From assembly GCA_035221665.1 (NCBI GenBank), contig CM069131.1:25606001-25670000 (forward strand): a stretch of 64,000 nucleotides of DNA, read 5' to 3'. The notes under the pieces are model-generated. The model made no database searches, was not told where the DNA came from, and saw only the letters and a list, made by a program, of their open reading frames with translations. The DNA is from Okamejei kenojei (taxonomy: Eukaryota). A program made the translations under genes and the position numbers. Of the stretch, positions 7,360 to 46,580 are shown one piece after another (positions within the stretch are counted from its first letter, which is position 1; each line of letters starts with the position of its first letter).

Positions 7360-9230
7360 TCATAATAATCTGGTGCTGAAAATATGCAACTGGTTGGACA
7401 GCATCTGTGAAGGGGGAAAGAATGTCAACATTTTAACTTGATTTCTTTCTAACTGAACTGAAAAAATTAAGGGATTGAATGGCGTTTAAACATATATAAA
7501 TGTAGAGAGAGTTAGGAGGGGAGAAAAGAATAACTGGCCCACGATCTGCTGGAAAGCAGGAGTGGAAGTCAAACATGTATGCTAAAGGAGCAAGAAACAC
7601 AAGATGAGTTATAAGAGGTAGAGGAATCTTGGTGTTTGCTCATTTTTAAAAATGGGACGTGTTTGTTATCTGAAATTGCTGCACTGAATTTTGAGTTCAA
7701 AGGGTGGGAAGTGGCTGATCAAGGAAATGCTGTTTCTCAGTTTCAGGAGCAATAAAAGAGTTCAACTGATACAGGTTCAAGGTGGAAAGAACCAGAAAAT
7801 AAATTGTCAAGCATCTGGAAACTTATGGTTATACTTGCAGGCTGAACAAATGCATTTGTGCAAAGCAGCATCTAATCTGCTTTTCATTTTACAGTTTACA
7901 AAGCAAAATGCATCAAGGGCAATGCAATGCAGTATTGTAATTTGGAAGAATAAAAGTAAATGCTTTTTCATCCGACTGTGCGCTTAGGAGGCCCTGAAGG
8001 ATGGGGAGGGAGAAAATAAAAAGGTGGATGTGACATATTTGCAAAATCACCGGTAGGTGCAGCGAAGGAGAGAAACATGTTAAGGCATTTTGAAGAGTTG
8101 GAGTGGACCAGAATGTCATAGAGGAACAATCCTATGGATAGTTAAGGGGCTGTCCCACTTGGGTGACCTAAGTGGCGAGTTTAGAAGAGTTTGAAAAAAT
8201 GACACGTTGAAGACCTCCTTCTACTATGTAGAAGACCTCCTTCGACTATGTTGAAGACCAGCTTCGACTAGCTACGACTATCTTCGGGAAAATTGGACAC
8301 CGAATAGTGGAAAGTGAAGACGACCTCATTCGACCTCCCTTCGACCTCCCATCGATTATGAGGCAGAGTATCTATAACTATCTTCGACTACTCTCGATTG
8401 CCTACGACTAACATGCCGACCTACTACGACCTATTATGACCTACAATGACTAAACCTACGAATAAAAAAGTATCGATTTTTTTCCATGGCAACCATATTT
8501 TACGTGCGGGCACTTTTTAACAAATTGAAAAAAACGCCGCGACCTAGCTGAGGCCTCGAGTACGCAGAGACCACTCTCGAGCATGAAGGAGAGTTACAAA
8601 GACCTCCGGCGACCTCGTGTCGAGCGTGCTGCGAGTATGAGTCGAGGGTAAACTCGCCAGAACTCGTGGATTAGGTCGCCCAGATGGGACAGGCCCTTTA
8701 AAGCGGGAGGAAAAAAATGGGTTTGATGGTAACACCATCTGGAGGTGGACCAGAGGGAGCATTTTGATTCATCATATATGGAGGATGATGGCTTCGAAGG
8801 TGTGGGCAAGGGGGTCTAATAAAGTTCCAGAAATGAGAGGAAGAAAGCATGGAAAATGTGACAAAAAATTATGTCATCCATGGTGAAGAAGATTGTTCAT
8901 TTGGGATGTTTATCAGAAGCACTATTGTGAGAATGGATATCATCAGAACAAATGCAATTGAGGCTGAGAAACTGAGAGACAGAAAGCGGGATGGAAGAAA
9001 TTATAATTAACGTTAAATCAACCTACCATCAGCATATTGTAGACGATGTTCAAAGGACAATGGTGACAGAGATAGAAGAAACGGAAAGAGATGAGAATGG
9101 GCAATGTACACCCAAGACGAGAGTGGAGATTGGAAACAAATTAGATGAAATTTTCCTTAATGAGACAAGGGCAATGGATCAAAAAATCTTGTATTGTGCG
9201 AGAGATCAGATGTATGGAGAAAAGCAGATG
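7360..9230 (-). mobile_element. Old decayed Penelope-like element, interrupted by a MITE
   Basis: Diverged pLTR-like sequence near 7370-7460 and sequence near 7660-7710 resembling the antisense of the GIY-YIG C-terminus seen at 46010-46090; purine-rich antisense body; boundaries approximate. Confidence 0.5.
8145..8697. mobile_element. PIF/Harbinger-type MITE copy 1
   Basis: TTA|AGGGGCTGTCCCAC ... TGGGACAGGCCCT|TTA; CpG-rich with internal ~21-bp gaagacctccttcgactatgt repeats. Confidence 0.85.
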
Positions 9231-9479: not shown

Positions 9480-11962
9480 GTAGGAAGGATCGGTGAGGCT
9501 GTAAGTGAATGTGCTGAGGAATTAATATAATTCAGTTGAACGCTTTGAGAGCAGGTCACGCAAAAGCAAGATTTCCTCTCCATGCATGCAGTCTCTGATA
9601 GTGGTGCGTTTCAAATCCCTCCCTAAAAAGATAGTAACATCTGCGATGGTCATCCCTGACTAGCTCGGCAGAATTAGAAATGCAAACAACAGATGGGGAA
9701 TTTAAAAACGGGGCAAAAGTTGGTATAATCTCATTCCTGCATATTAAATTGGTGATGCATTCATATAAAGACTAGAACCTGAGGCCAGAAATTTACCACC
9801 TTGATTCTTTTCAGACTGAAATACCAGATATTTAATTTCAGTTTGATCAGGTGTGTGTACCATCATCAGTGGCTCTGCAGAAATGCTGTGATGAGGATCT
9901 CATTCCTGCCAGCTGCTCACAATTTTAATTTAATTGGCACCATTTGAAATTATATAACATATACTTTTGTCAGTAGTGTGCAATGCTTAAGTTATAGAAT
10001 AACCTAAAATGTGAGGAGACCTTATCCTGAACATGATCCACAATGTTTCAGTATTTCAGTGTGGGTTGTGAAAAAGCCATCAAACCTGTGAAACAGACAT
10101 TAAAACTATGCAAGGAATATAAAGCCTGCATCAAGGCACTACTTCTTTGACTAATGCTCAAAAGATTCTCTAGTTCGACACAGCTTTAATATCTTTTGGG
10201 TTTGTCAATGTAAAACTAAGTTGCCGACCCTGCCCCCACCCCTATATTCTGCTCCACAATAGCCATCTCCCCACTCCCTATAATCCATCCACCCTCCATT
10301 TTTGAAATCTCAGAAAAAACCCAAAGAAGATTGCTTTAAATTCATGACAAGAACCTGGGAAGAGGGGATGGACCTGCATGGTCTGGTTACTGACTACTTG
10401 GGCACAGATGTAACTGATCTGCTTATTGTTTTTAAAAGCTTCCACATTATTTACAGCACCAGGTTGTATATTTGACGGTTATCAATCCCAGCCCAAGTCT
10501 TGCTTTGCTGACGAATTCAAGTCAATTTTCCATGAAGGATTAAGGAATGTGTTTTCCCCAGTTCACGGTAGGTTGGTTGATGTTGTGCTTAACCCTAATT
10601 CACTTGGAAGGAACCAGAGGCATAAGTTAGGTACTATTGCTTCTCCCCATTGCTATCACTGTGTGCAGATCTGATTCCAATTGGCAGTACACCCCCCTGA
10701 TCAGTTAGCAACACTGACATTTGGATGTACCTTGGTGTGTATGCCTCTCTGCTTTCGGAAGGCTCGTTACTGTTACTCTTTCCATGGAGCAGGAGCACCA
10801 GCCTTATATCCATCCTATCAACCTACAAAATCTTAAAGGAGATAGAAAATTTAATCCAACTCTTGTTTTTGGAATTTAGGTTGCAGCAATAAAATATCCT
10901 GCAGCGCTGCTTTAACTGCTCCTTTCCATTTGATCAGGCAAACAGTATTGCACATTCCTGCTGAGATAACTGAGAGGTCTTGCTTTTAGGTAACTGCTTT
11001 TCATTTATCTGGGTTTTGTAGATTAAGTGAAATCATCACATATTTTGTACAAGAGAATTATAGTATCCAGAATTCTATGTCATCTATAATTGTTGGAGCC
11101 TGATTCTGCCCCACAGTTTTGGTGTTGGAGCACGGTGCAGAAAACCAGGTGTGGATCTGTTCCTCAACTTTGAAAGAATCCAATATTTTCTTCTTTTATT
11201 AATCCATTCTCATGTTCTTTACAATGGAGAATATATTAACAAAGAAAATCACTGAGGGATTATTTTCCAAGAATTAAATACAAATCTTGCTCAGTAACCG
11301 TGCTTTCAAATTAGAAGCGGCAAATTCTAGACGTAAAACTGTGAAAAGGTTTATTTTTCAATGTCACCACCCCGACTGAAAATTGTTATGTACTTCAAGG
11401 CTGGTTCTTGGGAGGTTACCGTAAAATGTAATTGTGTCCATCAATCAAAAGCCATCGGTAACAATATAAATATATCAAACAATCAAATAGCACCTGAGGG
11501 ATGTCACCTAGTAACCACATCACTTTTAACTGATAAAAATTGCATCTATCTCATTAAAGATGTCTATTAAGAAGAATTATAAATATGACAGTGGTATGCA
11601 CCCAGGTATTTTAAGTCCATTGCCCTCAGGATGCAATACTTATGTTCAATTATATGCTCAAATTTTAACTGCTAAACACAATTTTTATTACAAAATGCCC
11701 AAGGCAAAATGTGAAGATGTGATTCTGGTGTTGCATTGTAATGAAAATCAACATCCATCCTGTTGAGCAAAATATTTGTTTTCAAATCTCTTTACAACTG
11801 AGGAACAAAAACATATCTTGTTTCATTGACCATTCTGCAGAAAATGACATTTGAAACATAATTTTAGTGAATTTGTGCATCAGTAAAATAACACGTGGTC
11901 AACTCTTGAGACATATTGAATAAATGCCAGTCTCCAGTTGCTCCTCTAGATTGCAGAAGTAA

Positions 11963-12472
11963 AGGGGCTGTCCCACTTGGGCGACCTAATCTGCGAGTTC
12001 TGGCGAGTTTGCCCTCGAATCATACTCGCAGCATGGTCGAGACAAGGTCCTAGGAGGTGTTTGTAACTCTCCTTCATGCTCGAGAGTAGTCCCCGTGTAC
12101 TCGAGGCCTCAGCTAGGTCGCGGCGTATTTTTCAACATTGAAAAATGCCCACGAGTAAAAAAAGGTCGCCTTGGGAAAATTCGACATTTTTTTTACTTGT
12201 AGGTTTAGTCGTAGTTGGCCGGCATGTTAGTCATAGGTAATCGAGGGTAGTCGAAGGTAGACATAGATAGTCTTCATCATAGTCGAAGGAGGTCGAAGGA
12301 GGTCGTCTTCACTCTCCACTATTCGGTGTCCAATTTTCCCGAACTTCGTCGTAGCTAGTCGAAGCTAGTCTTCAACATAGTCAAAGGAGGTCTTCTACAT
12401 AGTCGAAGGAGGTCTTCAACATGACATTTCTTTCAAACTCACCAATTAGGTCGCTCAAGTGGGACAGCCCCT
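11963..12472. mobile_element. PIF/Harbinger-type MITE copy 2 (same subfamily as copy 1, opposite orientation)
   Basis: TAA|AGGGGCTGTCCCACTTGGGCGA ... GTGGGACAGCCCCT|TTA; interior is the reverse complement of 8145-8697. Confidence 0.88.
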
Positions 12473-12764
12473 TTAGTGATCATAGTGGGCAACATTGGCT
12501 GAAACAAAATTCAGAGATTTTTTGCTTAGCAGTCAAAATCCTGATTTAAATTTAGGTTACCATCACCATTACTGTTATCTCCCTTAAAAAAAATTCTGAG
12601 TAAGAATTACCTGTCATCTAAACTTGATCCCAATTGTTACTTGCATTGTAAAACAACACAGCTTAAAATATTCCAAAACTTAAAATTGTGATTCCTGTAT
12701 TTTTATTTCTGTTATTTACAGAAAAATTCAATGTTAGGTGAAGTACAGAATATTTCAGAAATTT

Positions 12765-18526: not shown

Positions 18527-19225
18527 ATTGTCAAAATGCTGGCGATTCAGTGCCAAGTTTTGAAACCTAAGTACCAGTCAGTATTAGAACTACCATTACT
18601 GCATGCCGTATAGTCTGCACTTGATTGAACATCCCTTTTCAATGCAATCGCAGTGAGGAATGTGGGGAATCCGCTGTGGTGGGTGTTTATGTTAACTTTT
18701 ATGTAGTTGTCTGTCTTGATGCTTTTTTTAGTGTGGCTGTATGGTAATACGAATATCACTGTACCTTAATTGGTACACGTGACAATAAGATACCTTTGAA
18801 ACCTTTGAAAGGCAAATTGTTGAATCCCAGAAGTAGGCTGATTTGTATTTCTGAGAAACATCAGCAACAGTCCCAGAATCTGAAGCAACTCCAGCCTCAC
18901 TATAAACTAAGGTCCCCACTGATTGCAATTGCATTTGAGCTCAACCATTGTGCAGTAATTTTGTATGCAGCAGCAATACAAAAATCACTGTAGAAAATAT
19001 TCACATCTCCTTTGGCAGCTGCTAAAGCTTTCTGATGACTTGATATTGGCAGTGTTCTAATTGTTTCCTGTGAAAACCCTGTGATGTGTCTAACTCAGTA
19101 TTTCTTTTGTACTAAAGGTATTAGCTATTCCATAATTTCTCTATTATATTCGACATTCAGCATTCATTTACTTTAATCGACTTTAAAATGCTTATCCTAC
19201 TCGAGTCTATATACTCAGTACTTTG

Positions 19226-19452
19226 ACACAAAATGCTGGAGTAACTCAGCAGGACAGGCAGTAACACTGGAGAAAAGGAATGGCTGATGCTTCTGTGTTT
19301 CTCCCTCTCCCCTGATATCAGTCTGAAGAAGGGTCTCGAACCGAAACGTCACCCATTCCTTCCCTCCAGAGATGCTGCCTGTCCCGCTCAGTTACTCCAG
19401 CATTTTGTGCCTATCTTTGTTTTAAACCAGTGTCCGCTTTTCCTTCCTACAC
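19226..19452. mobile_element. Inverted pair of Penelope terminal repeats with hammerhead-like motif; 15-bp TSD
   Basis: TSD atac(t/c)cagtactttg at 19211-19225 and 19453-19467; CTGAAGAAGGGTCTCGAACCGAAACGTC at 19323-19350. Confidence 0.8.
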
Positions 19453-21779
19453 ATACCCAGTACTTTGTATGGCATTGAGTGATATATTTTAAAGTCGTTA
19501 GTTCTCCTTTAGGATAAATATAGGAACTGAGGGAAATGCTTCCAAATCACGACTCCAATACGTTGCAGTTTACTTCTTGCTGTTTCTTCAGTGGAAGATC
19601 AGCTGAAACTCCTAGAGGAAGAATGGGAATGTGTGTTCACACCATTGATGTGAAGTCTTCCTTTGTAATTTGAATATCACTGAACCTTAATTGATGCACG
19701 TAACAATAAAATACCTTTGAAACCTTTGAAGTCTTCATTGAAATTACAACGTCTGCTCCAGAAAGAAAGAAAGGTAACCACAGTGCCGGGCTAACAGTGA
19801 TGGGCAACTGTACCGCCTTCCAGTGAGTGTGATAGCTGTTAAACATCAGGGACCTCATTATTGACATTTCCTCCATTGTACCATCTTTTAACTCCATGTT
19901 GAGAAGTAACAGTGAACTACTGATAGTCAAGGCCACCAGCTCCAAATATGTAAATTATCAACAGACCCAAATTTTGAAACAGATATGTAGGTGGGCAGTT
20001 CTTTGAAACTATTGGAATGTTGTGCAGCAGCAAATAATGTAATACATTTTTCAAATGGATAGCACATGGAATTGAACACAAATTTCAGCATATAGTAGAG
20101 CCAATGCCACACATTGGTTGGTTCTTTCTGAAGGAGTGTGAAGTTGTGCTGATTGTATTATGACTTAACAAGGTGCAATAATTGGCTACCAAAAGGGTCA
20201 AGCAAACATTAAGTACCTGAATTACAAGGGGAAGCTGCAGAAACTGCACTTGTTTAGTTTAAAAGCGATTGGAAAGGATTTTACTGAAATATCCAAGACC
20301 TTTACATTTGTCAAAAATGTTAAACGTGAGAAATATTTAACCTGAATCTGGAAATGAACTGTGACAAGAGGCAGAATGAAATAAATCTCAGATAAGGGAA
20401 CATATTTCTCTAGATGTGACAATCTGTAAGTTCTGCTGTGCAGTGCTACATTGTTTTAATGCAGTACATCTTGAATTTTTATCAAAATTGCTCAGCTTAA
20501 TGAGGTGCTTGGTGCACAGGCAGTACACGTCCAGATCTTTGAAGCAAGACCTCTGTGTGAATGACACACCCAAGCACAGGGTCAACATGCAATATTCAGT
20601 TTGACACCACATCTGTGAAATTGTACTATGCAAAAGCTGAGGCCCTGAGTAGCAAAGCAGATGTTGGCTGGGATGGGGGACGTTGAAGCCTGCTTTGCAG
20701 CTTAAGTGCCTGACCCGTCCCAGGGCCCTGCTGGCTAGTCTGCGACATTCATCATCGTTCAGATAAGCTTTTCTTTGAGTTTTCATTTTTACAGAACCCC
20801 TCAACAGCCCTCTTGCCCTCAGCCAAATACAATCATCTCCCCAACCACTGCCCAAACATCTTCCCGAGCCCCCACCTCCCCTGATCTATCTACATTTTCT
20901 CAGTCTTATTCCATTACATCCCATCCTTACAATCTTCACTCCTTGACTCACCATAACCCCCTCCGCCGCCCCCACCCCCACCACCACCACCATTTTCACC
21001 TTTTTACAACTCAATCTGGTCTCCAGAGTATGTCCTCTGCAGTCTGCATTTGCTTCACTGGTGGAACAATGTGTTGGTTTTCACTGGTAAGCGTGAAAGC
21101 CTTGGGCCTCATCCACGATAAAATGTTCAAATGAGGACAACTCAGACAAAACTGTTGTGTCCCTCCCCTCTCCCACGAGATGCCACTTTAACATGCAATG
21201 TTATGTAGATTATAATTTCTGGCCCAACTACTTCAAACAGAGGATGAGTAATGCTTTAATGCATTATTTATGGAAGCATTCGCAGCTGATAATAGCAGTA
21301 ATTATCAAAGGAGTTCAACAGGCATTTGGTAAGAAAATTAATTGAAGGATGTTGTTAATTAACCATGTATCCTGAGACTAGCCTGGTATATATTTCCCCA
21401 GTTCAATTTCTGCTTTTATTTTTATTTCATTTTTGGCCAGTATTACATTTTTTGGCAAGAATACATGAAATTGTCAAGGATTTTAAAAACATCATTCTCC
21501 AGATGGAAAAATCTTTGTTTTGGGCCCACTGGTTCTAATACATGATAAAACTACTTATTTTATAGAACCTGAGACTGAGTTCTATTCTGATTATTTTTGT
21601 ATTAGTTTAAGGAGGGGACGCATCAATATCTCCATCAGGACTTGTGCTTGAGTGCTTGCTGTCTGGTTATATTTTCCTGTCTTTGTCAGTGTTTCCAGTA
21701 CATTCAGGAACGATGTCAAACTCTTGGTTGCCCCAGAATGGAATGTTGTACTATATTGTTTGCTGGGAACTACGCTCTG

Positions 21780-22195
21780 CAGGAAAGGAACTGCAGATGC
21801 TGGTTTAAACTGCAGATAGACACAAAATGCTGGAGTAACTCAGCGGGACAGGCAGCATCTCTGGAGAGAATGAATGGGTGACATTACGGTTCGAGGGTAG
21901 AGGGCGAGGGAGATACATATATACCAGGGGAGAGGGAGATACATAGATAAGGAAGTTTAATGTATGAAACCAGGACAAAGGCGATGAAGATAAAGGAAAA
22001 CGTAGAATAGATCATTGTGAGCTGGGAGAAGGTAACAACAAAGCAAACAGAGATAAAATGTACTCGGAAACAGTCAGACTGGTCGGACAACTGGGAAAGG
22101 GGAGAGAGGGAGAAAGCAAGGGTTACTTGAAGTTAGAGAAGTCAATGTTCATATCGCTGGGGTGTAAGCAGCCCAAGCGAAATATGAGGTGCTGT
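21780..22195 (-). mobile_element. Penelope-like element 3' fragment
   Basis: Antisense pLTR (gaactgcagatgctgg...gacacaaaatgctggagtaactcagcggg) plus antisense of QHLIFRLGCLHPSDMNIDF (GIY-YIG C-terminus). Confidence 0.75.
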
Positions 22196-29060: not shown

Positions 29061-29651
29061 AGGGCCTGTCCCACTTAGGTGATTTTTTTTGGCGTGAGCG
29101 GTCTCCTCAAGTGTCGTTACTTATTTCTTGTCGCCGCTGGATTTTGAAATGTTCAAAACCTCTCGGTGACAGTGGGCTTGACATTGCCTGACGTTGCCTG
29201 TCTATACCTGTCATAGGTGCTGTCGTAGGTTGTCGCCAGGATGACACCAGGTGACGTTGATTGTCGCCGGGTCATAACCTCGGTGAATTCCATTGGCGAC
29301 AATCTACGTCATCCTACGTCAACCGGCGACAGTACCGGCTTCAAGAGAAGTATTCAGTTATCTTCATTTGTCGCCGACAGGGGTGTAGCTTATCGTAGCT
29401 TGTCGCTGGTGGAGGTAGGTTGACTTCGGGTGTCGTAGGTTGTCGCCTGTGTGGTAGAAGGTTGTCGTAGCTGGACGTCCCGAGTCGCGAGGAATTGTGT
29501 CGCCCGTTGACGTAGCTTGCCGTAGCTTGACGTTGACTAGGTGGTAGCTTGTCGTGGACATTGTCGTGGGGTGGGAGCATTTCCGGCGTCACGCCGTGAC
29601 AGTGACTGTCGCCACAGTTGCCTAAAATATCGCCAAAGTGCGACAGGCCCT
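29061..29651. mobile_element. PIF/Harbinger-type MITE copy 5
   Basis: TAA|AGGGCCTGTCCCACTT ... AAGTGCGACAGGCCCT; GTCG/CGAC-rich; right TIR duplicated by a later PLE insertion. Confidence 0.82.
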
Positions 29652-29652
29652 T

Positions 29653-29874
29653 GTTTAAGAAGGAACTGCAGATGCTGGAAAATCCAAGGTAGACAAAGGT
29701 GCTGGAGAAACTCAGCGGGTGCAGCAGCATCTATGGAGCGAAGGAAATAGGCAACGTTCCGGGGCCAAAACCCTTCTTGAGAGTGAAGAAGTTTTTGGCC
29801 CGAAACATTGCCTATTTCCTTCGCTCCACAGATGCTGCTGTACCCGCTGAGTTTCTCCAGCACTTTTGTCTACC
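29653..29874. mobile_element. Inverted pair of Penelope terminal repeats; 14-bp TSD
   Basis: Fold-back of gctggagaaactcagcgggtgcagcagcatct with agatgctgctgtacccgctgagtttctccagc; TSD tg(c/g)gacaggccctt at 29639-29652 and 29875-29888. Confidence 0.8.
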
Positions 29875-30451
29875 TGGGACAGGCCCTTCATGGGTTGAAT
29901 GTAGGATTTTGGTGGTGGGTAAACTGAGACAAGCTGGGGATAAATTGTTTCAGGTATAGAATCAGGCAGTCTTTGTGCTGGAGGCCAATGAAGTATGGAG
30001 ATCAGCTCAGTGTCAGCGAGGATAGAGTAAATTACAGTGACTGGGACTGGTCAGAGAGAGAGCTTGAAACAGTAGTGACAAAAGCCATTTTGTGGTGGGG
30101 AAATAAGATATTGGTTACATTTTCCTGTGAGTAAATGGAGGACTGCATAATTCTGAATATCTTAGCATTGTTTGTTCTTTCTGGCATGGTGAAAGCTTCT
30201 GTTTCTGAAAAAATATGTTTGGCCTAGCCTCAGAACAACTTGCAAATGAATTGTTTGTTCTAGAAATCCTGAAAATTGACAAATTTGTTGTTCCACGGAT
30301 TTCTTTTATAACTTCCAAAGCTATTCTTTGGATTGTCATTCTACATTTGAAATATCTTGTGAATTAAATCGAATTTTGTATCCACTCGTACAATCTATGA
30401 TTTACCGAACCAGGTACTTCAATGATCATCATTTTTTTTCTATCCCTGCAG

Positions 30452-34163: not shown

Positions 34164-34632
34164 GACACAAAAAGCTGGAGTAACTCAGCGGGACAGGCAG
34201 CATCTCTGGAGAGAAGGAATGGGTGACGTTTCGAGTCTCGAAATCCATGAGTCGCAACCATTCTTTGGCTGTATATATTGATGCGGCTCCTCCCTCGCCA
34301 TCCTTTAATGCAAAATAATGAGTGGGGAAGGTGAAGGCAGTTTTGCCGCTTTCCTCCTTATCTTTCTTCACTCCCTGTCTTTTGCTCGCTGTCTTACTGC
34401 TCATAACCTGAAGTAAACAGACAATAGATTTGTCATAAAGCAGGATGAGTTGTGCAAAGATAGACACAAAAAGATGGAGTAACTCAGCGGGACTGGCAGC
34501 ATCTCTGGAGAGGAACAGGTGACGTGCACATCACCCTTTCCTTCTCTCCAGAGATGCCGCTGTCCCGCTCAGTTACTCCAGCTTTTTGTGCCTATCTTCG
34601 GTTTAAACCAGCATCTGCAGTTCCTTCTGACA
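34164..34632. mobile_element. Composite PLE-terminus insertion carrying ~215 bp of foreign sequence; 16-bp TSD
   Basis: TSD aaataaattga(t/c)gata at 34148-34163 and 34633-34648; pLTR pieces at 34161-34240 and 34457-34630 (inverted pair). Confidence 0.75.
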
Positions 34633-34750
34633 AAATAAATTGACGATAATTATTTTCCAGCATTATTAAGAATTTAAGAATGTAGAAATAGAAATCAAAC
34701 TGGATTGATTTTGCCTGTATGATATTAACAGTATTTTTGTGATTCTACAG

Positions 34751-34847
34751 TGAAAACAACGTGCAGGAGGACCTGTTTGACCAGATTCTTGTTGGCCGCC
34801 TAAAATTTCCATCTCCTTACTGGGACAATATCACGGGCTCTGCTAAA
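34751..34847 (+). CDS. DCLK2: DCLK2 coding exon (alphaG region)
   Basis: gattctacag| ... |gtatgt; 97 nt; [32 protein letters not shown]. Confidence 0.95.
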
Positions 34848-36463
34848 GTATGTAAAGTGAATTCCTAAGCAGTTTGTGGGAATCTAAAATATTGCCATGT
34901 CAGATTATGTGTGGCTCTGTAGGAGATGATGTGTGGGGTATAGATGGGAAATGACATTCTGATGGATGATAGTGGCGGGTCTGATGGGTGGTATGGGGGA
35001 AGGAAAGTTCCAATTTGGGGGATGGAGACAAGATGGTCTGTGAATGTTGAGTTGCTGTGCAGTAATGTACAGGTGGGGCGAGAGATTATGAGTGGCAATA
35101 TGGGGGATGTGTGGTGAAGTGGGGGATGGGAAGTGGTGATGTGAGGGTAATGAGTTGCAGTGTGGGATTTAAGGAATGTCAGTGAGGGGATAATGCGTGA
35201 TGTTGTTCAAGGGGTGTGCACTGGTGTGGAGGACAATGCGTGTTGGTTTGGGAAAGTGTTGGTATGGTGAAGTCAAGGGTGATGAGGTATCTCAGAACAC
35301 TTGGTAATCAGCTTGTCACACCACGTTAGTATTAATATTTGTTCCAACCTGATGAAAGGTAATCGACCAAAATTGTCAACTCGTTTTATTTCTCTCCATA
35401 ATCTGCCCAAGTATCTTCAGCATTTTCTGTTTTCACTTTACGCTGCCGCATGTATCATCACATGTATTAAGCCTTGTTTGCCATCAATACTTTACTCACA
35501 AAACCTATATTGGTTCCTCATTCTTTGAATTGAAACGTATTCCCTGTAATTCCAATCCTTCCACACGCAAATCTTCTTCTCTAATACCTCTTACAACCTT
35601 TAAGATATGTCTAACTCTAATTCTGGCTCTTCACAATTCCTACCATCGGCAGGGTTCTAAATTGTGGTATTCATATCTCTTTGTATTTTTCTTTCCTTTT
35701 AAGTCATTTCTTAAACTGGAAGGACGTACAAATACAAACAGACAGGATCTGAGGTCAGGATCAAACCCGGGTCCGTGGCGCAGCGAGGAAACAGGTCCAC
35801 CGCTGCTGCACTGTGCCACACGAAGCACCCCACCCACCACCCTAAACATGTACTCCCTTCACCCCCGCTGCACCTTAGCTTCAGTGTGTACTATCTATAA
35901 CATATTACCTGGGCTATTCAGCCAACACCTACCATACGCAGCCACTACCACCAGGCTACAAGAGCAGCAGATACGTGGGAATACCACCACCTTCTAAGAA
36001 ACACACCGCAATGGTTCATGTAGGTGGCTAAAAATCTCCTCAATGCCAGTTAGAGATGAGCAATAAACCCTGGCCTTATCTGCGGCATCCACATCCTGGG
36101 AAAGGTTGCTGGCAGTCAGGTTTAAATAACGGAAGACATGATGGTGTGAATCTTATATTATTGTGGTGGTATTTACTCACATCTTGTCAAAAGATTGAAA
36201 TTCATTTGTAGGTGAAGGCTGTGGGTTTAAAAATTACATTGTTATTTTTCTAGCGGGACAATGAAACAAACTCACCTTCTGACTCCGACTTAATATAGTG
36301 CGAATATTACAGGGAAGAAATGCTGCCTAGAATGGCTCTCACATAAGGTGTCTGTAGCAAAATATGCCGTCTAGGCTTATAATTCAGCTGACTATGCAAA
36401 AAAACACTTCCCGCACAAAAGGCTATAAGAGCTTAAAATGCATTGACCCAAAGGTTGTAAAAG

Positions 36464-39400
36464 AAAATAGTAAGATTAAATGAGAACTTACCAGTTTGAA
36501 GTTTGATCTTTATTTTATGAGGAGTTAAGACGAGGGACTACGTGAAGAACCCCACACAGCCGTTCGTTCGTCAATCTTCAAAGCAACGGTGTGAAATCAC
36601 AGGTAATAGTGACTGAAGTATAATAGTAAGAACAAAAGACTAGAACTACCAGATGACATTTATGAGGGTTGGGAATGGAGGGCACGTAGTCCCTCATCTT
36701 AACTCCTCATAAAATAAAGACCAAACATCAAACTGGTAAGTTCTCGTTTAATCTTACTATTTTACTTCGGAGTCACGTGAGTGATTACGTGAAGATTTCA
36801 AAGCTCTGTGATTTCATACCATGTTAAACGAGTATACACAACCACAGCTGCTTCATTGACAAATGAAGGGAAAACATTCATAATGCATACAGTCATGACA
36901 TAGATGTAAAACATGTTGATGCTGCTAAATGAAACAATAATATTTCCATCTCTCACCCAGGTGGAAAATATAACCAGAACATAAATAGAGTTAACAAATA
37001 CCCCTGGTTCAGCAATGGGTTATTATAGAATGTTTGGAGATTCTTTCGTTGGACCATGCTGCAGCCATAACAATGCGACCCAGCGGAACATAAATACCCT
37101 TGCTGCTGATGTTGTAGCAGCCCTGGTGGAATGAGATCTGGAATCAGAATCCATTCCTACATAACACAACTCTGTTTTTATCATCTGGAATGGCCTCCCA
37201 ATTTTTTTGTGACTAACAACATTGCTAGTCCAGAAACTCCAAGGCTCTTAATGACCTTGACATATTGTTGTATATATGTGTGCTTACCTTATCAAAGGTC
37301 CCCTGGCATGCCTGTGACTATTTTGAGACCTGACCCCCTTCTGGTCTGCTCAAGTATTTATAACATAATATTATATATTATAATTTACAGACATAATCAT
37401 CCTGTACCATCACAATGATGTAGCGACTGAACCTGCTGCACTAAACCAATGCCAGAAGGATAACTACCTAATAAACTCCAGCCCAATTTAAGGATATAGA
37501 TGGAGCCTTCTGGTGAAATAGTGTTCACAAATGTGAACATCGCATATGGCATTGTACTGGTTCTGGGAGACCTATGTTGAAGATATCCCTACCACTTGAT
37601 ATCCAGTGTGGACCCGACAGAGCGAGTCTTGTTTGTTACAGCCAACTCAATGAGAAAACTCATTGACCCAATTAATGGCCGTATAACTCAATAATTAACA
37701 AACGATCATTTAACATGAACTCCAAACATTAGCAATTTATACCATTTTCAATGGAACATGAGCATAAACAAACTCTTTCATCTCCTGGAAAAGAAAAATT
37801 CTGCTGTTTGGTGCTATCCAAGCACTTTGAACACATAGAAGGATATGTAACAACCCAAACCTTAGGGCAGTTTATTAAACCTGCAGAACATAATTTGAGT
37901 TTATCATGCAACAACTGATTTCCCAAGCCTCAGGCTGAACCAGCAAATTACGTTTAAAATAACCAAATAAGGTTATATTATTATTTTTGACAAATCGGGA
38001 ATCAATTTGCATAATCACACAATAGGAACCTTAAGCGGCCTCTTAATGACTTTATTTGAAGCCTCGATTGATGAAACAAAATGGAGGGAGCCATAAAAGA
38101 CCTTCCTTCTCCTTTTAGCGATAATGTATCTTTCGCCACTGTTATGCCACATATTTTGCAACCAGTGAAATAAACATGAAACCAACATATATATATATTA
38201 GGTGTTCCATTTAACCAGAATTTCATAATATATTTTGATTCAACACCAATTCTGTGTTGCCATTAACCTATATGTGATGATTCTCCTGTGACAACAAGAT
38301 TATGTAACCATTCCAGGGGTCTTTAACCGATTGCACCCTCGTGACTAACATATGCCATCATCATAATGTATCAACCTGAACCTGCGCATGACAATATGTC
38401 TCGGCCCGAAACGTCGCCTATCTCCTTCGCTCCTTAGATGCTGCTGCACCCGCTGATTTTCTCCAGCTTTTTGTGTAAAGCAGTCTGAAGAAGGGTCTCG
38501 GCCCGAAACGTCGCCTATCTCCTTCGCTCCTTAGATGCTGCTGCACCCGCTGAGTTTCTCCAGCTTTTTGTGTAGCAGTCTGAAGAAGGGTCTCGGCCCA
38601 AAACGTCGCCTATCTCCTTCGCTCCTTAGATGCTGCTGCACCCGCTGAGTTTCTCCAGCTTTTTGTGTACCCTCGATTCTCCAGCATCTGCAGTTCCTTC
38701 TTTAAACATTTATGACAATATGCATATTTGTCCAATCACTCTTTAACCCATACAATGCCCGTAGGGTCCGTAGATAATTGATACCAATAAATGAAAAATT
38801 TGCAAGTCATGCAAGTCTGCTCCACCTCCAAACTCAAGATGATATTTGCAACTTGGTATCTACCGTAAACAGCAACTGTGGCCCGATTTCCGAGCCAGTC
38901 TTGCAAGACAATCTTGGTCCTTCTACTGAACCTGCCCAATTCTAACCTGCTTGAAAAGCTAGTATCGTCCATTTTACATGGTTAGACCCCTCAAAGTAGC
39001 TGATAACGTCTAAATCATTTGTAATGTATAACTAAGTGTACACCTTACCAAGCTGTAAGTGGTCCCTTAATTGTAGAGTAGCACAGGCACAGTGCGTGGA
39101 ACCTCTGGCCAGCTGTCATGCTGCCACAACTTCAGTGAACCGCTTACTGCCAAAGAAGACGTGGGGTGCATTGTCGCCGAAACTATGAAACCTTGCTCGT
39201 TCCAATAGCTTGAGCTTCGCCCTCCAGGTTTCACCTATGGAAATGTCTTACCTGAATAGAAGATTCGGCGGCCAACTGTAATGTCCCCCTGAGAGCGATG
39301 TTCACTGCATGTGTGTTTGGGATGGCAACTTTCCTGCCAGGCATAGACCTCTGGCACATGCCCTGTATCCCTTGGGCATGCTCTACGGCTATACCCTCAG

Positions 39401-40060
39401 ACTCGGCGTTAGACTATACTGATCCCACATGCTCTCCTCTTACATGAGGGAGCCATTAAGCAGCCCTGATACACGGTGCTGCTGGCGCAGCTTCAGCAAT
39501 ACGCCGACTTTGCCATGGCCCCAGCGTCAGACTAATACTGATGCTGCATGCTCTCCTCCTACATGAGGGAGACACTAAGCAGGCCTGCTACTAAGCCCTG
39601 CTGACACAATTTCCCATTTAGGACCATAGCACAAATTTGCAATATAATGAAAGATTTACCTAGCAACTACTGGAGCAGTAATGAATATTCTGGAACCGCA
39701 CTATTCTTGGGTATCCCATCCCCAGGAACCCAACCTGTGGAGTCACTGACCGCGTTATCAGTGACTCTGATCGCGAACCCAACATTCCCAGCTCTTCGCT
39801 TCCTCGGTCGAACCAGGGTTTTTCCCCCAAAGCCCTAGGCTGGTTCCCTCGTCGGCCATCGCGAACATCCCGCAAAAACCTCAGAGGTTCCTGCAGGAGA
39901 CCTACAACAGTAAAGAATAGCACTTACTTGAAGTTTTAGACTTACCATTGGAGGAGCTGCGCTGCTCCACAGTCGTCTGCACGAAAGCGTCTGACGTAAT
40001 GACGCACAAACGGCTATACGGGGTTCTTCACGTAGTCACTCACGTGACTGAAGTAAAATA
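36464..40060 (-). mobile_element. DIRS1-type tyrosine-recombinase retrotransposon, decayed
   Basis: Inverted terminal motifs gactacgtgaagaacccc (36536-36553 versus its complement ~40019-40037). Internal complementary region 36683-36794 matches both termini. Antisense of ~37020-37135 reads SHSTRAATTSAA..MAAAWSNE..QTFYN (YR motifs, frameshifted). Confidence 0.85.
38399..38711 (+). repeat. Head-to-tail trimer (~95-97 bp period) of a PLE terminal unit with hammerhead-like core; 11-bp TSD
   Basis: tctcggccc recurs at 38399, 38496 and 38591; CTGAAGAAGGGTCTCGGCCCGAAACGTC at 38485-38512; TSD atgacaatatg at 38388-38398 and 38712-38722. Confidence 0.85.
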
Positions 40061-40470
40061 GCCATGGTGTTTAAAAGGAAATTTAAAATACATTTGCTGC
40101 TCCTTTTTCGAGCTTGGTTAATTTTGAGCAATGGCTACAATGCAAGGTGCTTCGTTTCCCCCACAAAAAAACAAACAATAAAGCCAGAGGTAATTGTCCC
40201 TTCCCCTCAGTTTCCTTCCCATACGCAAGAGAGCAAGAAAACCTTGCCCAATGCAGATCTTCCCTATTCAGTCTAACAAATCTGAGTTCAGTGGTAGATA
40301 GTAATGTAATGTGTTTGATAAATAGTTTCTGCAGCGCACCATATACTATCAAAATATTGCAGACTTTGTAGTTCTGTATAACATGTTAAATGGAGTGCAC
40401 TGTGGCAGTGAGCTATCTTGAGTCTGTAGCTGTAAATGCCTCTGGCCTTAATGCTCTCATTCTCTTGAAG

Positions 40471-40551
40471 GAATTGATTAGCCGAATGCTGCAGGTGAAT
40501 ATTGAGTCACGCTACACAGCTGAGAAAGTTCTGACTCATCCGTGGGTGGCT
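40471..40551 (+). CDS. DCLK2: DCLK2 coding exon (end of kinase domain)
   Basis: cattctcttgaag| ... |gtgagt; 81 nt; ELISRMLQVNIESRYTAEKVLTHPWVA. Confidence 0.94.
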
Positions 40552-44799: not shown

Positions 44800-46580
44800 C
44801 AAACATAAACTGTTGGACATATAGAGATTGATTATTTTGTGAAGAGAGAAAAGAGAGAAGTGGATTCAGTGTAAACCCTCACCCATCATAAAATGATAGT
44901 TTCCATGTATCATCCAAGACACCGCACACAGGCTTCAGCAATTCAACAACCTTCCATTCCTAGGCCCCAATGCATCATCTTTACCATAGCTGTCCAGTCC
45001 CTCTACATCTCCATTATCCCCAGGTCCCTCCAGTTCTTCTTTAAATAGAGACCCAATAAGTTCCTCACAATTAACCCTTGTCCTCACCCATAACAAGTTC
45101 TCTTTTGAATCCACTCACTTTCTTCAAGTTCAATGGTGTAGCCATGGATGCTCACATGGGCCCCAGCTATGCCAGTATTTTTGTTGGTTCCATTGAATAC
45201 TCTTTGTTCCAAATGCCGCATTGGGGTTGCTTCCTGCACCCATTCAGAACTCGATGAATTCATCAACTTTACTACTAACTTTCGCCCTGTCCTCAAGTTC
45301 ACTTGGACAACTTGTGACATCTCTTTTCCCTTTCTCAGTCTCCCTAGCTCCATCACAGGAGACAGACTATTGACTGGTGTCAATATGCTCACATTTGCTC
45401 CCAAGGTTAAGTTTTTCATCTGAGATATCCGCTTTCTTCAGTAAACATGGTTTTCCTCCTGTTGTTGTGGATAGAGCACTCACCCATATCTCCTCTGTGC
45501 CCCGCAGTTGTGCTTGAACTCCCTCTCCCCAGCTGGAGAAAGAACAGAGTTCCATTGGTCTTCATATTTCACCTCACCATCCTCCACATCCAACACATCT
45601 ATCTCCAACAATTCTGTCGCCTTCAACATGATCCCACCTGCAGTCACATCTTCCTGTCCCCAACCCATTCCACAGTTCGTAGGGACCTCCTCTCTCTTTC
45701 CAGCCACAGACCCTGACTGCCCTTGCAGATGAGAGAGAGGTTCACTGAGGGAAACTGAGAAAGGGGAAGGAGAGAGGTTCATATACAACGGCTCCAATTC
45801 TGTTCATCTCATTTGTTGTTCACAATGTGGCATCCTTTACATTGGCGAGATCAAGCGTACACCAGCATTTAGCTGAACATTTGCTCTCTGTCCACCAAGG
45901 CCTGCTGGATCTCCCATTTGCTAACCATTTTAACTCCCCTTTCCATTCCCATACCCAACTTTCTGTCCTTGACCTCCTCCATTGACAGAGTGAGGCCACA
46001 CACAAATTGGATGAACAGCATCTCGTATTTCATTTGGGTAGCCTACGAGCCATTGGTATGAACATTGAATTCTTCGATTTCAAGTAATAGCCCCTAACCC
46101 CCTCCCATCCCTCACATCTTACCCCTACCCCCCGCACCACACTGGTGTGCACCCATTTCTCCCACCATCACCCGCTACTCTGCCAAACTGATCCATCCCC
46201 TACCCCCCCACAGTAGAACAATTCCCACATCTCATATTTCCTTTTTCCTCCCTCTTTCCCATTCCCCTGGTCTCCAATCAGATCCCTCCCTCCGCTCTTT
46301 ACATTTCACTCCTCCTCTTCATTTCTCATCTGATACCTGTTTGTCTCCTATTGAAATACAAGCCCAGTATGCCAATCTTTCACTCCCATTACATGTCACA
46401 GATAATTTCACCTCTAGCCTTTGTCACCCATCTGCCAATCACACTACCCTCATCTGTATCTACCTATCACTTGCCAGACTCTGCCCCATCCACACCTTTC
46501 TATCCCTGCTTTCTCCTCCTTGCTCCTTCAGTTTAAAGTTATCTGTGCATTTCCTCACAGATGACCTGCTGTGTTCCTCC
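44800..46580 (+). mobile_element. Penelope-like element ORF remnant (RT + GIY-YIG endonuclease), pseudogenised
   Basis: GVAMDAHMGPSYASIFVG (~45135-45188), ELDEFINFTTNFRPVLKFTWT, CGILYIGEIKR (~45826-45858), DEQHLVFHLGSL..GMNIEF (~46010-46075); many frameshifts. Confidence 0.85.

Follow-up and report, generated by a model that had tools for sequence, protein, structure and literature searches.

Penelope-like elements (PLEs) with target-site duplications (TSDs) of 8–10 bp and with tails have been described (Arkhipova, 2013), and very short 5'-truncated PLE insertions have been recorded in a mutation study of Chlamydomonas (PMC9977147). The minimal hammerhead motif of PLEs has also been described, including a helix I of 2 bp in the Penelope element of D. 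virilis (PMC4209133), and the cleavage of hammerhead dimers is covered in a review (PMC6765202). Schostak (2008) did not settle how PLE tandems arise, and noted that some Penelope copies transpose without tandems.

Two papers on retrozymes propose different routes to tandem hammerhead repeats, namely rolling circle (Cervera and de la Pena, 2020; PMC7229834) vs local amplification (Li, Clavereau and Pollet, bioRxiv 10.64898/2026.07.22.740005). The first of these papers also mentions PLE tandems that have minimal motifs, as something apart from retrozymes (PMC7229834). Li, Clavereau and Pollet report tandem pLTR-derived hammerhead units in 20 of the 31 vertebrates surveyed, a chondrichthyan among them; the families range from 51 to 972 bp, with a mean of 98 bp in Sarcopterygii, most of them have seven units or fewer, and one of the nine dimers tested was cleaved.

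Here, we describe a tandem array of a PLE-derived unit in Okamejei kenojei, which provides a clean test case, since its confirmed TSD, single tail and unequal junctions separate both of these routes from repeated template jumping. Coordinates refer to the window, the whole stretch of 64,000 nt that was analyzed (assembly GCA_035221665.1, contig CM069131.1, positions 25,606,001 to 25,670,000 of the forward strand).

The array and its insertion site

The tandem array is real and consists of 2.8 units of 95 nt with a single 3' tail, enclosed by an 11-bp duplication. TRF places it at 38398–38669 (period 95, 2.8 copies, 97% matches, score 514), in agreement with a sequence-only reading of this DNA that had claimed three near-identical head-to-tail units of ~95 nt. 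All units and the tail lie on the plus strand. Unit 1 (38398–38477) is an 80-nt, 5'-truncated pLTR core which keeps helix II, GAAA and GUC, with a potential cut after 38415, and lacks the CUGAAGA box. It is followed by an extra AA (38478–38479), which is present at junction 1 only and is likely non-templated, then by unit 2 (38480–38574), a complete 95-nt pLTR core with the sole intact minimal type I hammerhead core among the three, and by unit 3 (38575–38669), also complete, which carries G12A at 38600 and a potential cut after 38607. The PLE 3' tail (38670–38711), present in a single copy, is 42 nt long, comprising about 39 nt plus TTT, and contigs of relatives mapped to 38100–39000 have loose ends at 38705.

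When aligned in register, units 1 and 2 differ by one substitution (T at 38457, G at 38554), as do units 2 and 3 (G at 38505, A at 38600, which is the GAAA>AAAA change); the array units are ~99% identical, with 2 substitutions in 271 nt. The same alignment bears out the earlier description of a 5'-truncated first unit, a GAAA>AAAA change in the third and a normal 3' end on the last unit only. One correction to that reading is that the two junctions differ, junction 1 having the extra AA.

The two copies of the flanking 11-mer, at 38388–38398 and 38712–38722, are its only occurrences in the 64-kb window, and among 200,000 random pairs of 21-nt zones about 10 have an identical 11-mer in common. 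The last G of the left copy is at the same time the first base of unit 1, and an alternative reading is a 10-bp duplication with 1 nt of microhomology. Two sets of contigs from related species, X1 and X2, were compared with the locus; across the runs that matched, the best share of words was 0.56. Two X2 contigs skip exactly 324 nt (from 38387 to 38712 and from 38390 to 38715; intervening letters not given), a length that corresponds to the insert together with one 11-mer copy, and two X1 contigs skip 335 nt at the array (intervening letters not given). Because contigs of related species are without exactly the 324 inserted bases, the 11-bp duplication is a true TSD, and the proposal of an exact 11-bp TSD around one insertion stands. 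The X2 empty-site contigs are probably paralogous copies of the host repeat rather than the orthologous locus. Elsewhere in the window, two of the seven other family insertions examined have TSDs, of 10 and 11 bp, and a third has a doubtful one of 9 bp.

The array is nested in a decayed multi-copy element on the minus strand (36464–40061), which is also multi-copy in the contigs of relatives. Its inverted repeats at 36464–36544 and 36683–36763, both partly complementary to 40000–40061, give it the inverted terminal repeats and internal complementary region that we take to be the terminal architecture of DIRS elements, and near 37100 the minus strand has an HSTR-type motif, presumably that of a recombinase. 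No match to the host element was returned by the Pfam, homolog or Atlas searches. Judged from its architecture and this presumed motif, the host appears to be DIRS-like; of the earlier claim that the array is nested in a DIRS element, the inverted and complementary DIRS-like termini were retained, while confirmation from the databases was not obtained. Since the recombinase-like motif reads on the minus strand, the array is apparently antisense to its host.

The intron that holds the array is flanked by two kinase-like exons on the plus strand (approximately 34740–40548, from translation, with the left edge read by eye). The downstream exon matches Pfam Pkinase (E = 0.0011), and the upstream exon has no Pfam match. 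The array is therefore in the sense orientation of a kinase-like gene, as had been claimed; we take the gene to be of the DCLK family, and its name DCLK2 received no database confirmation, the match being to Pfam Pkinase only. Elsewhere in the window, 8144–8700 and 11960–12473 are inverted repeats of about 550 bp with 80% identity, each with a 22-bp tandem; they may represent either the termini of a DNA transposon or one repeat present twice in opposite orientation.

The PLE family of the unit and its hammerhead motifs

On the evidence of sequence comparisons, the unit is the pLTR end (terminal repeat) of an abundant PLE. The contigs mapped to the 901-nt stretch 38100–39000 numbered 57,505 in X1 and 55,680 in X2, and the depth over the array far exceeded that over the flanks. 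An anchored search detected 12 family copies in the window, three of them in the array, and an additional copy at 19223–19293 was found by blast only. In the alignment, six of the nine non-array copies carry the block that we take to mark the "main" subfamily, and two are close to the variant of the array.

The minus-strand copies at 21785 and 44397 represent a sister subfamily, about 80% identical to the array unit, and upstream of their cores is DNA matching the last codons of an ORF at 44900–46080 on the plus strand (blastn E = 9e-11 and 7e-4). This is a decayed PLE ORF with RT, linker and GIY-YIG, which matches RT + GIY-YIG proteins from the RT to the C-terminus (tblastn and HMM). Pfam RVT_1 and GIY-YIG were matched on relatives of the ORF; its endonuclease fragment had no match in the direct homolog search and was identified by tblastn instead. 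From the Cys-rich linker in P0002, we take the PLE to be of the Neptune type. The tie of the array subfamily to the RT + GIY-YIG ORF would thus be an indirect one, running via the sister subfamily at ~80% identity. The 3' end of the ORF itself is different from the unit and is without a recognizable hammerhead.

The array also has the features of a PLE insertion, including a 30–40 nt tail at one end only, 5' truncation, and a TSD of about 8–11 bp with an empty site. The PLE origin that had been suggested for the unit was upheld by the sister copies running into the decayed ORF, by the tail at one end and the TSD, and by the minimal hammerhead. Other arrangements of family copies occur in the window as inverted pairs. 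A head-to-head pair of the subfamily closer to the array is located at 29642–29888, one copy tailed and one tail-less, within an 11-bp TSD; a second pair, at 19216–19467, has a 10-bp TSD, and for a third, at 34455–34630, a TSD was looked for and none was found.

Both boundaries of the unit recur in other copies. At the 3' boundary, five of the nine non-array copies are tailed, and four end about 2–10 nt beyond the end point of units 1 and 2. In an anole PLE, the RT starts at two internal sites which bracket the tail (PMC11167929). Since tail-less copies end nearby and the two start sites of the anole PLE bracket its tail, the 3' end of the unit is, by analogy, likely a natural RT start site and not a random break.

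At the 5' boundary, 10 of the 12 same-strand, non-empty-site joints among those listed in relatives' contigs (71 further) restart 0–6 nt from CAGT, with intervening letters given for four of the ten, and this count is biased in that the usual upstream body is absent from the reference, so longer copies pile on the same coordinate. Of the three inverted pairs in the window, only the one at 29652/29784 has its turning point at CAGT. In the copies of relatives, CAGT is preceded by a C-rich body ending in AT (loose ends at 38481 in 222 and 193 contigs), and therefore the G before CAGT at both array junctions is not the usual upstream base. We infer that the CAGT boundary is the transcript start; TCAGT fits the initiator consensus. 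The promoters of PLEs sit within the pLTR (PMC2377424).

Single-G letters between joints, in 4 of the 12 rows listed, were considered as cap-derived G and rejected, as they can come from a base of the subfamily that is read on the other strand at an inversion joint (joint kind not given). Several X1 and X2 contigs break off at 38509–38521, in one row exactly at 38512 and otherwise no more than about 10 nt from the cut site, and resume at CAGT. These are tiny hammerhead-only tandems of 1–3 contigs each, with break points that are spread and not peaked, and they could be traces of the RT jumping to the ends of cleaved RNA.

The core boxes, the extra base 9.1, helix II and the ACGU palindrome can be read directly from the letters and fit a minimal type I PLE hammerhead. 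In unit 2, C3 is at 38485, helix II at 38493–38504, G12 at 38505 and C17 at 38512, and helix I has 2 bp, in line with the earlier caveat that it looked very short. Because Rfam gave no hammerhead at the array at either the gathering or the E ≤ 10 threshold, the hammerhead call rests on the motif as read. The generic CUGAnGA..GAAA pattern had 10 matches vs 6.5 expected and is not enriched.

In a double hammerhead, each core cuts the GUC of its partner, with G12 as the general base. Since unit 1 is without the CUGA box and unit 3 has G12A, only the core of unit 2 could be functional, and it would act after 38415 or 38607. Cleavage at 38512 would depend on unit 1, whose core is absent, or on unit 3, with its G12A, and that site is thus without a working core in cis and cuttable only in trans. 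Regarding the dimeric ACGU helix III proposed previously, the palindrome is indeed present in all three units, but a working dimeric ribozyme is not supported, with one of three cores intact and 38512 lacking a core in cis. The constrained active folds lie 13.7 (after 38415) and 13.5 (after 38607) kcal/mol above MFE, the pairing probability is 0.002–0.004 for helix II and at most 0.04 for the inter-unit helix III, and the CUGA box is mostly paired elsewhere. The hammerhead of unit 2, the sole intact core of three, is predicted by these folds to be inactive. It is conceivable that a protein chaperone could alter its folding; a chaperone effect has been reported for an anole element (PMC11167929).

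Origin of the array

Given a single tail, a single TSD, natural boundaries on either side of the unit and unequal junctions, one target-primed event with two re-primings is the simplest account of the array, and repeated template-jump reverse transcription, one of the routes named in the sequence-only reading, is its likeliest source. We hypothesize, with a probability of roughly 0.55, that a single target-primed insertion produced the array, the PLE RT running off the 5' end of the RNA and re-priming twice. The GIY-YIG endonuclease would nick the target, after which the RT would begin at the outer (tail) initiation site and copy the tail and core to the RNA 5' end at CAGT, and then jump to the inner (tail-less) initiation site and recopy the core. 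A second jump would leave two untemplated bases, and the final copy would stop after 80 nt, with the 5' junction sealed on 1 nt of microhomology. Template jumping by the R2 RT requires non-templated addition (PMC8857657), and for end-to-end jumping by a PLE RT no demonstration was found in the literature examined. The locus is likely a dead insertion with the hammerheads as passengers, given that one hammerhead is truncated, one has G12A, and the last is predicted to be held in competing pairings.

Alternative to serial jumping, the multimer might have existed before the insertion, in which case a tandem master elsewhere, belonging to a retrozyme-like 95-nt family ending in the tail, would have given a linear multimer transcript that was copied once by the PLE RT with ordinary 5' truncation. 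We regard this as possible though rather improbable. Multicopy head-to-tail insertions of non-autonomous PLEs are on record (PMC8557442), tandem pLTR-derived families have been reported in a chondrichthyan (bioRxiv 10.64898/2026.07.22.740005), and an X2 joint from 38702 to 38481 (depth 1047, one contig row, one A between, joint kind not given) may mark a tail-inclusive tandem family. However, none of the nine other copies in the window is head-to-tail, and the unit junction is spanned by 0 of 16 contig pieces among those listed (116,573 further), a weak argument as contigs break in repeats. Further, the master itself would need a junction made in the same way as in serial jumping. In metagenome contigs, the unit-junction pattern matched two loci, neither with a blastn match to the window, and these are chance matches; the family pattern had no match in viral contigs.

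A later local duplication would instead place part of the tandem after the insertion: the element would have arrived as a partial tandem of two units and gained its middle unit afterwards, through unequal crossover or slippage over the 80 bp of homology. An 80-bp homology is enough for unequal exchange, and the ~99% identity of the units agrees with a duplication. Post-insertion local amplification is also the model of the 2026 preprint (bioRxiv 10.64898/2026.07.22.740005). However, the two junctions would have been identical at birth, so the AA would have to be a later indel exactly at the junction, for which the rough chance is 0.6–2.3% (2 substitutions in 271 nt, assumed indel:substitution ratio 0.1–0.2) under a flat model, which underestimates how readily slippage removes AA from an A3 run. 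In addition, the first junction still needs one RT jump. We consider this duplication unlikely.

Rolling-circle reverse transcription of a 95-nt circular RNA made by the hammerhead, as in the retrozyme model and as suggested by the earlier reading, has been proposed for metazoan retrozymes and PLEs (PMC7229834; PMC4209133). The ACGU palindrome for a dimeric helix III in all three units is compatible with it, and the cores of units 2 and 3 may both have been intact at birth. Nonetheless, the tail is outside the 95-nt unit and cannot fit such a circle, so an RT start on linear RNA is required; a circle copied twice would give identical junctions, whereas those of the array differ; and the units are not joined at the point where the hammerhead cuts, which calls for a tandem parent in any case. 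The ribozyme itself also argues against this route, with its 2-bp helix I and active folds 13.5–13.7 kcal/mol above MFE. Minimal PLE hammerheads cleave poorly even as multimers (PMC4209133), and eight of nine predicted Xenopus dimers did not cleave (bioRxiv 10.64898/2026.07.22.740005). We therefore consider the rolling-circle origin very improbable. As for misassembly, the trimer is known from the assembly, with no read found to span it, and the true insertion might have only one or two units. Such an artefact is nevertheless hardly credible, since private substitutions in units 1 and 3 and differing junctions are not readily made by false duplication.

Beyond this locus, we tentatively suggest, as an idea that may well prove wrong, that retrozyme-like arrays arise within one Penelope insertion, as the RT repeatedly runs off the 5' end of the transcript and re-primes at its inner start site, without circular RNA or later satellite amplification. 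If true, their junctions, with a fixed G before CAGT, possibly cap-read, and variable untemplated bases, would leave in the genome a signature of that step which can be counted, and from which the transcript start and the jump chemistry of a vertebrate PLE could be mapped.

Comparison with PLEs and retrozymes

In searches of the literature, as distinct from repeat libraries such as Repbase or Dfam, no published description of this 95-nt unit was found; the supplements of the 2026 preprint may list the unit. Among described systems, the endonuclease-positive PLEs (RT with C-terminal GIY-YIG) share with the array the 5' truncation, a 30–40 nt tail at one end, a TSD of 8–11 bp and a minimal type I hammerhead in the pLTR, and their inverted pairs have counterparts among the sister copies of the array. 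The standard partial tandem of these PLEs is pLTR-tail-ORF, whereas the array is without an ORF and consists of pLTR cores only, the tail-less end of each core being joined to the start of the next. The non-autonomous Chlamys PLEs of Chlamydomonas are also multicopy and head-to-tail, but they are described as belonging to another PLE clade (with an N-terminal endonuclease), in an alga, and without canonical hammerhead motifs (Craig, 2021; PMC8557442).

The retrozymes of Li, Clavereau and Pollet resemble the array in being short PLE pLTR-derived tandems with a type I hammerhead, and the size of its unit falls in their range of 51–972 bp. The ~95-nt unit had previously been thought unusually small, a view that the published families, with their Sarcopterygii mean of 98 bp, do not support (bioRxiv 10.64898/2026.07.22.740005). 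Their rule for an "active" retrozyme is two consecutive complete motifs, whereas in the array one of three is intact, although two may have been so at birth. Further, these authors propose local amplification after insertion, while the junctions of the array point to birth during insertion. The retrozymes of Cervera and de la Pena (2020) share with the array the tandem type I hammerheads and a TSD of more than 4 bp, and a PLE was suggested as their helper (PMC7229834). By contrast, those retrozymes have canonical hammerheads with loop–loop contacts, efficient cleavage and circRNAs of 150 to over 1000 nt (PMC7229834), and the array departs from this canonical type I form in its 2-bp helix I and in its active folds, 13.5–13.7 kcal/mol above MFE. 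The claim that the array is a retrozyme is thus weak. Taken together, the array is a tandem repeat of a known kind, and likely no circle-making retrozyme; on the features tested it falls outside both published definitions of retrozymes, and it works like a PLE partial-tandem insertion.
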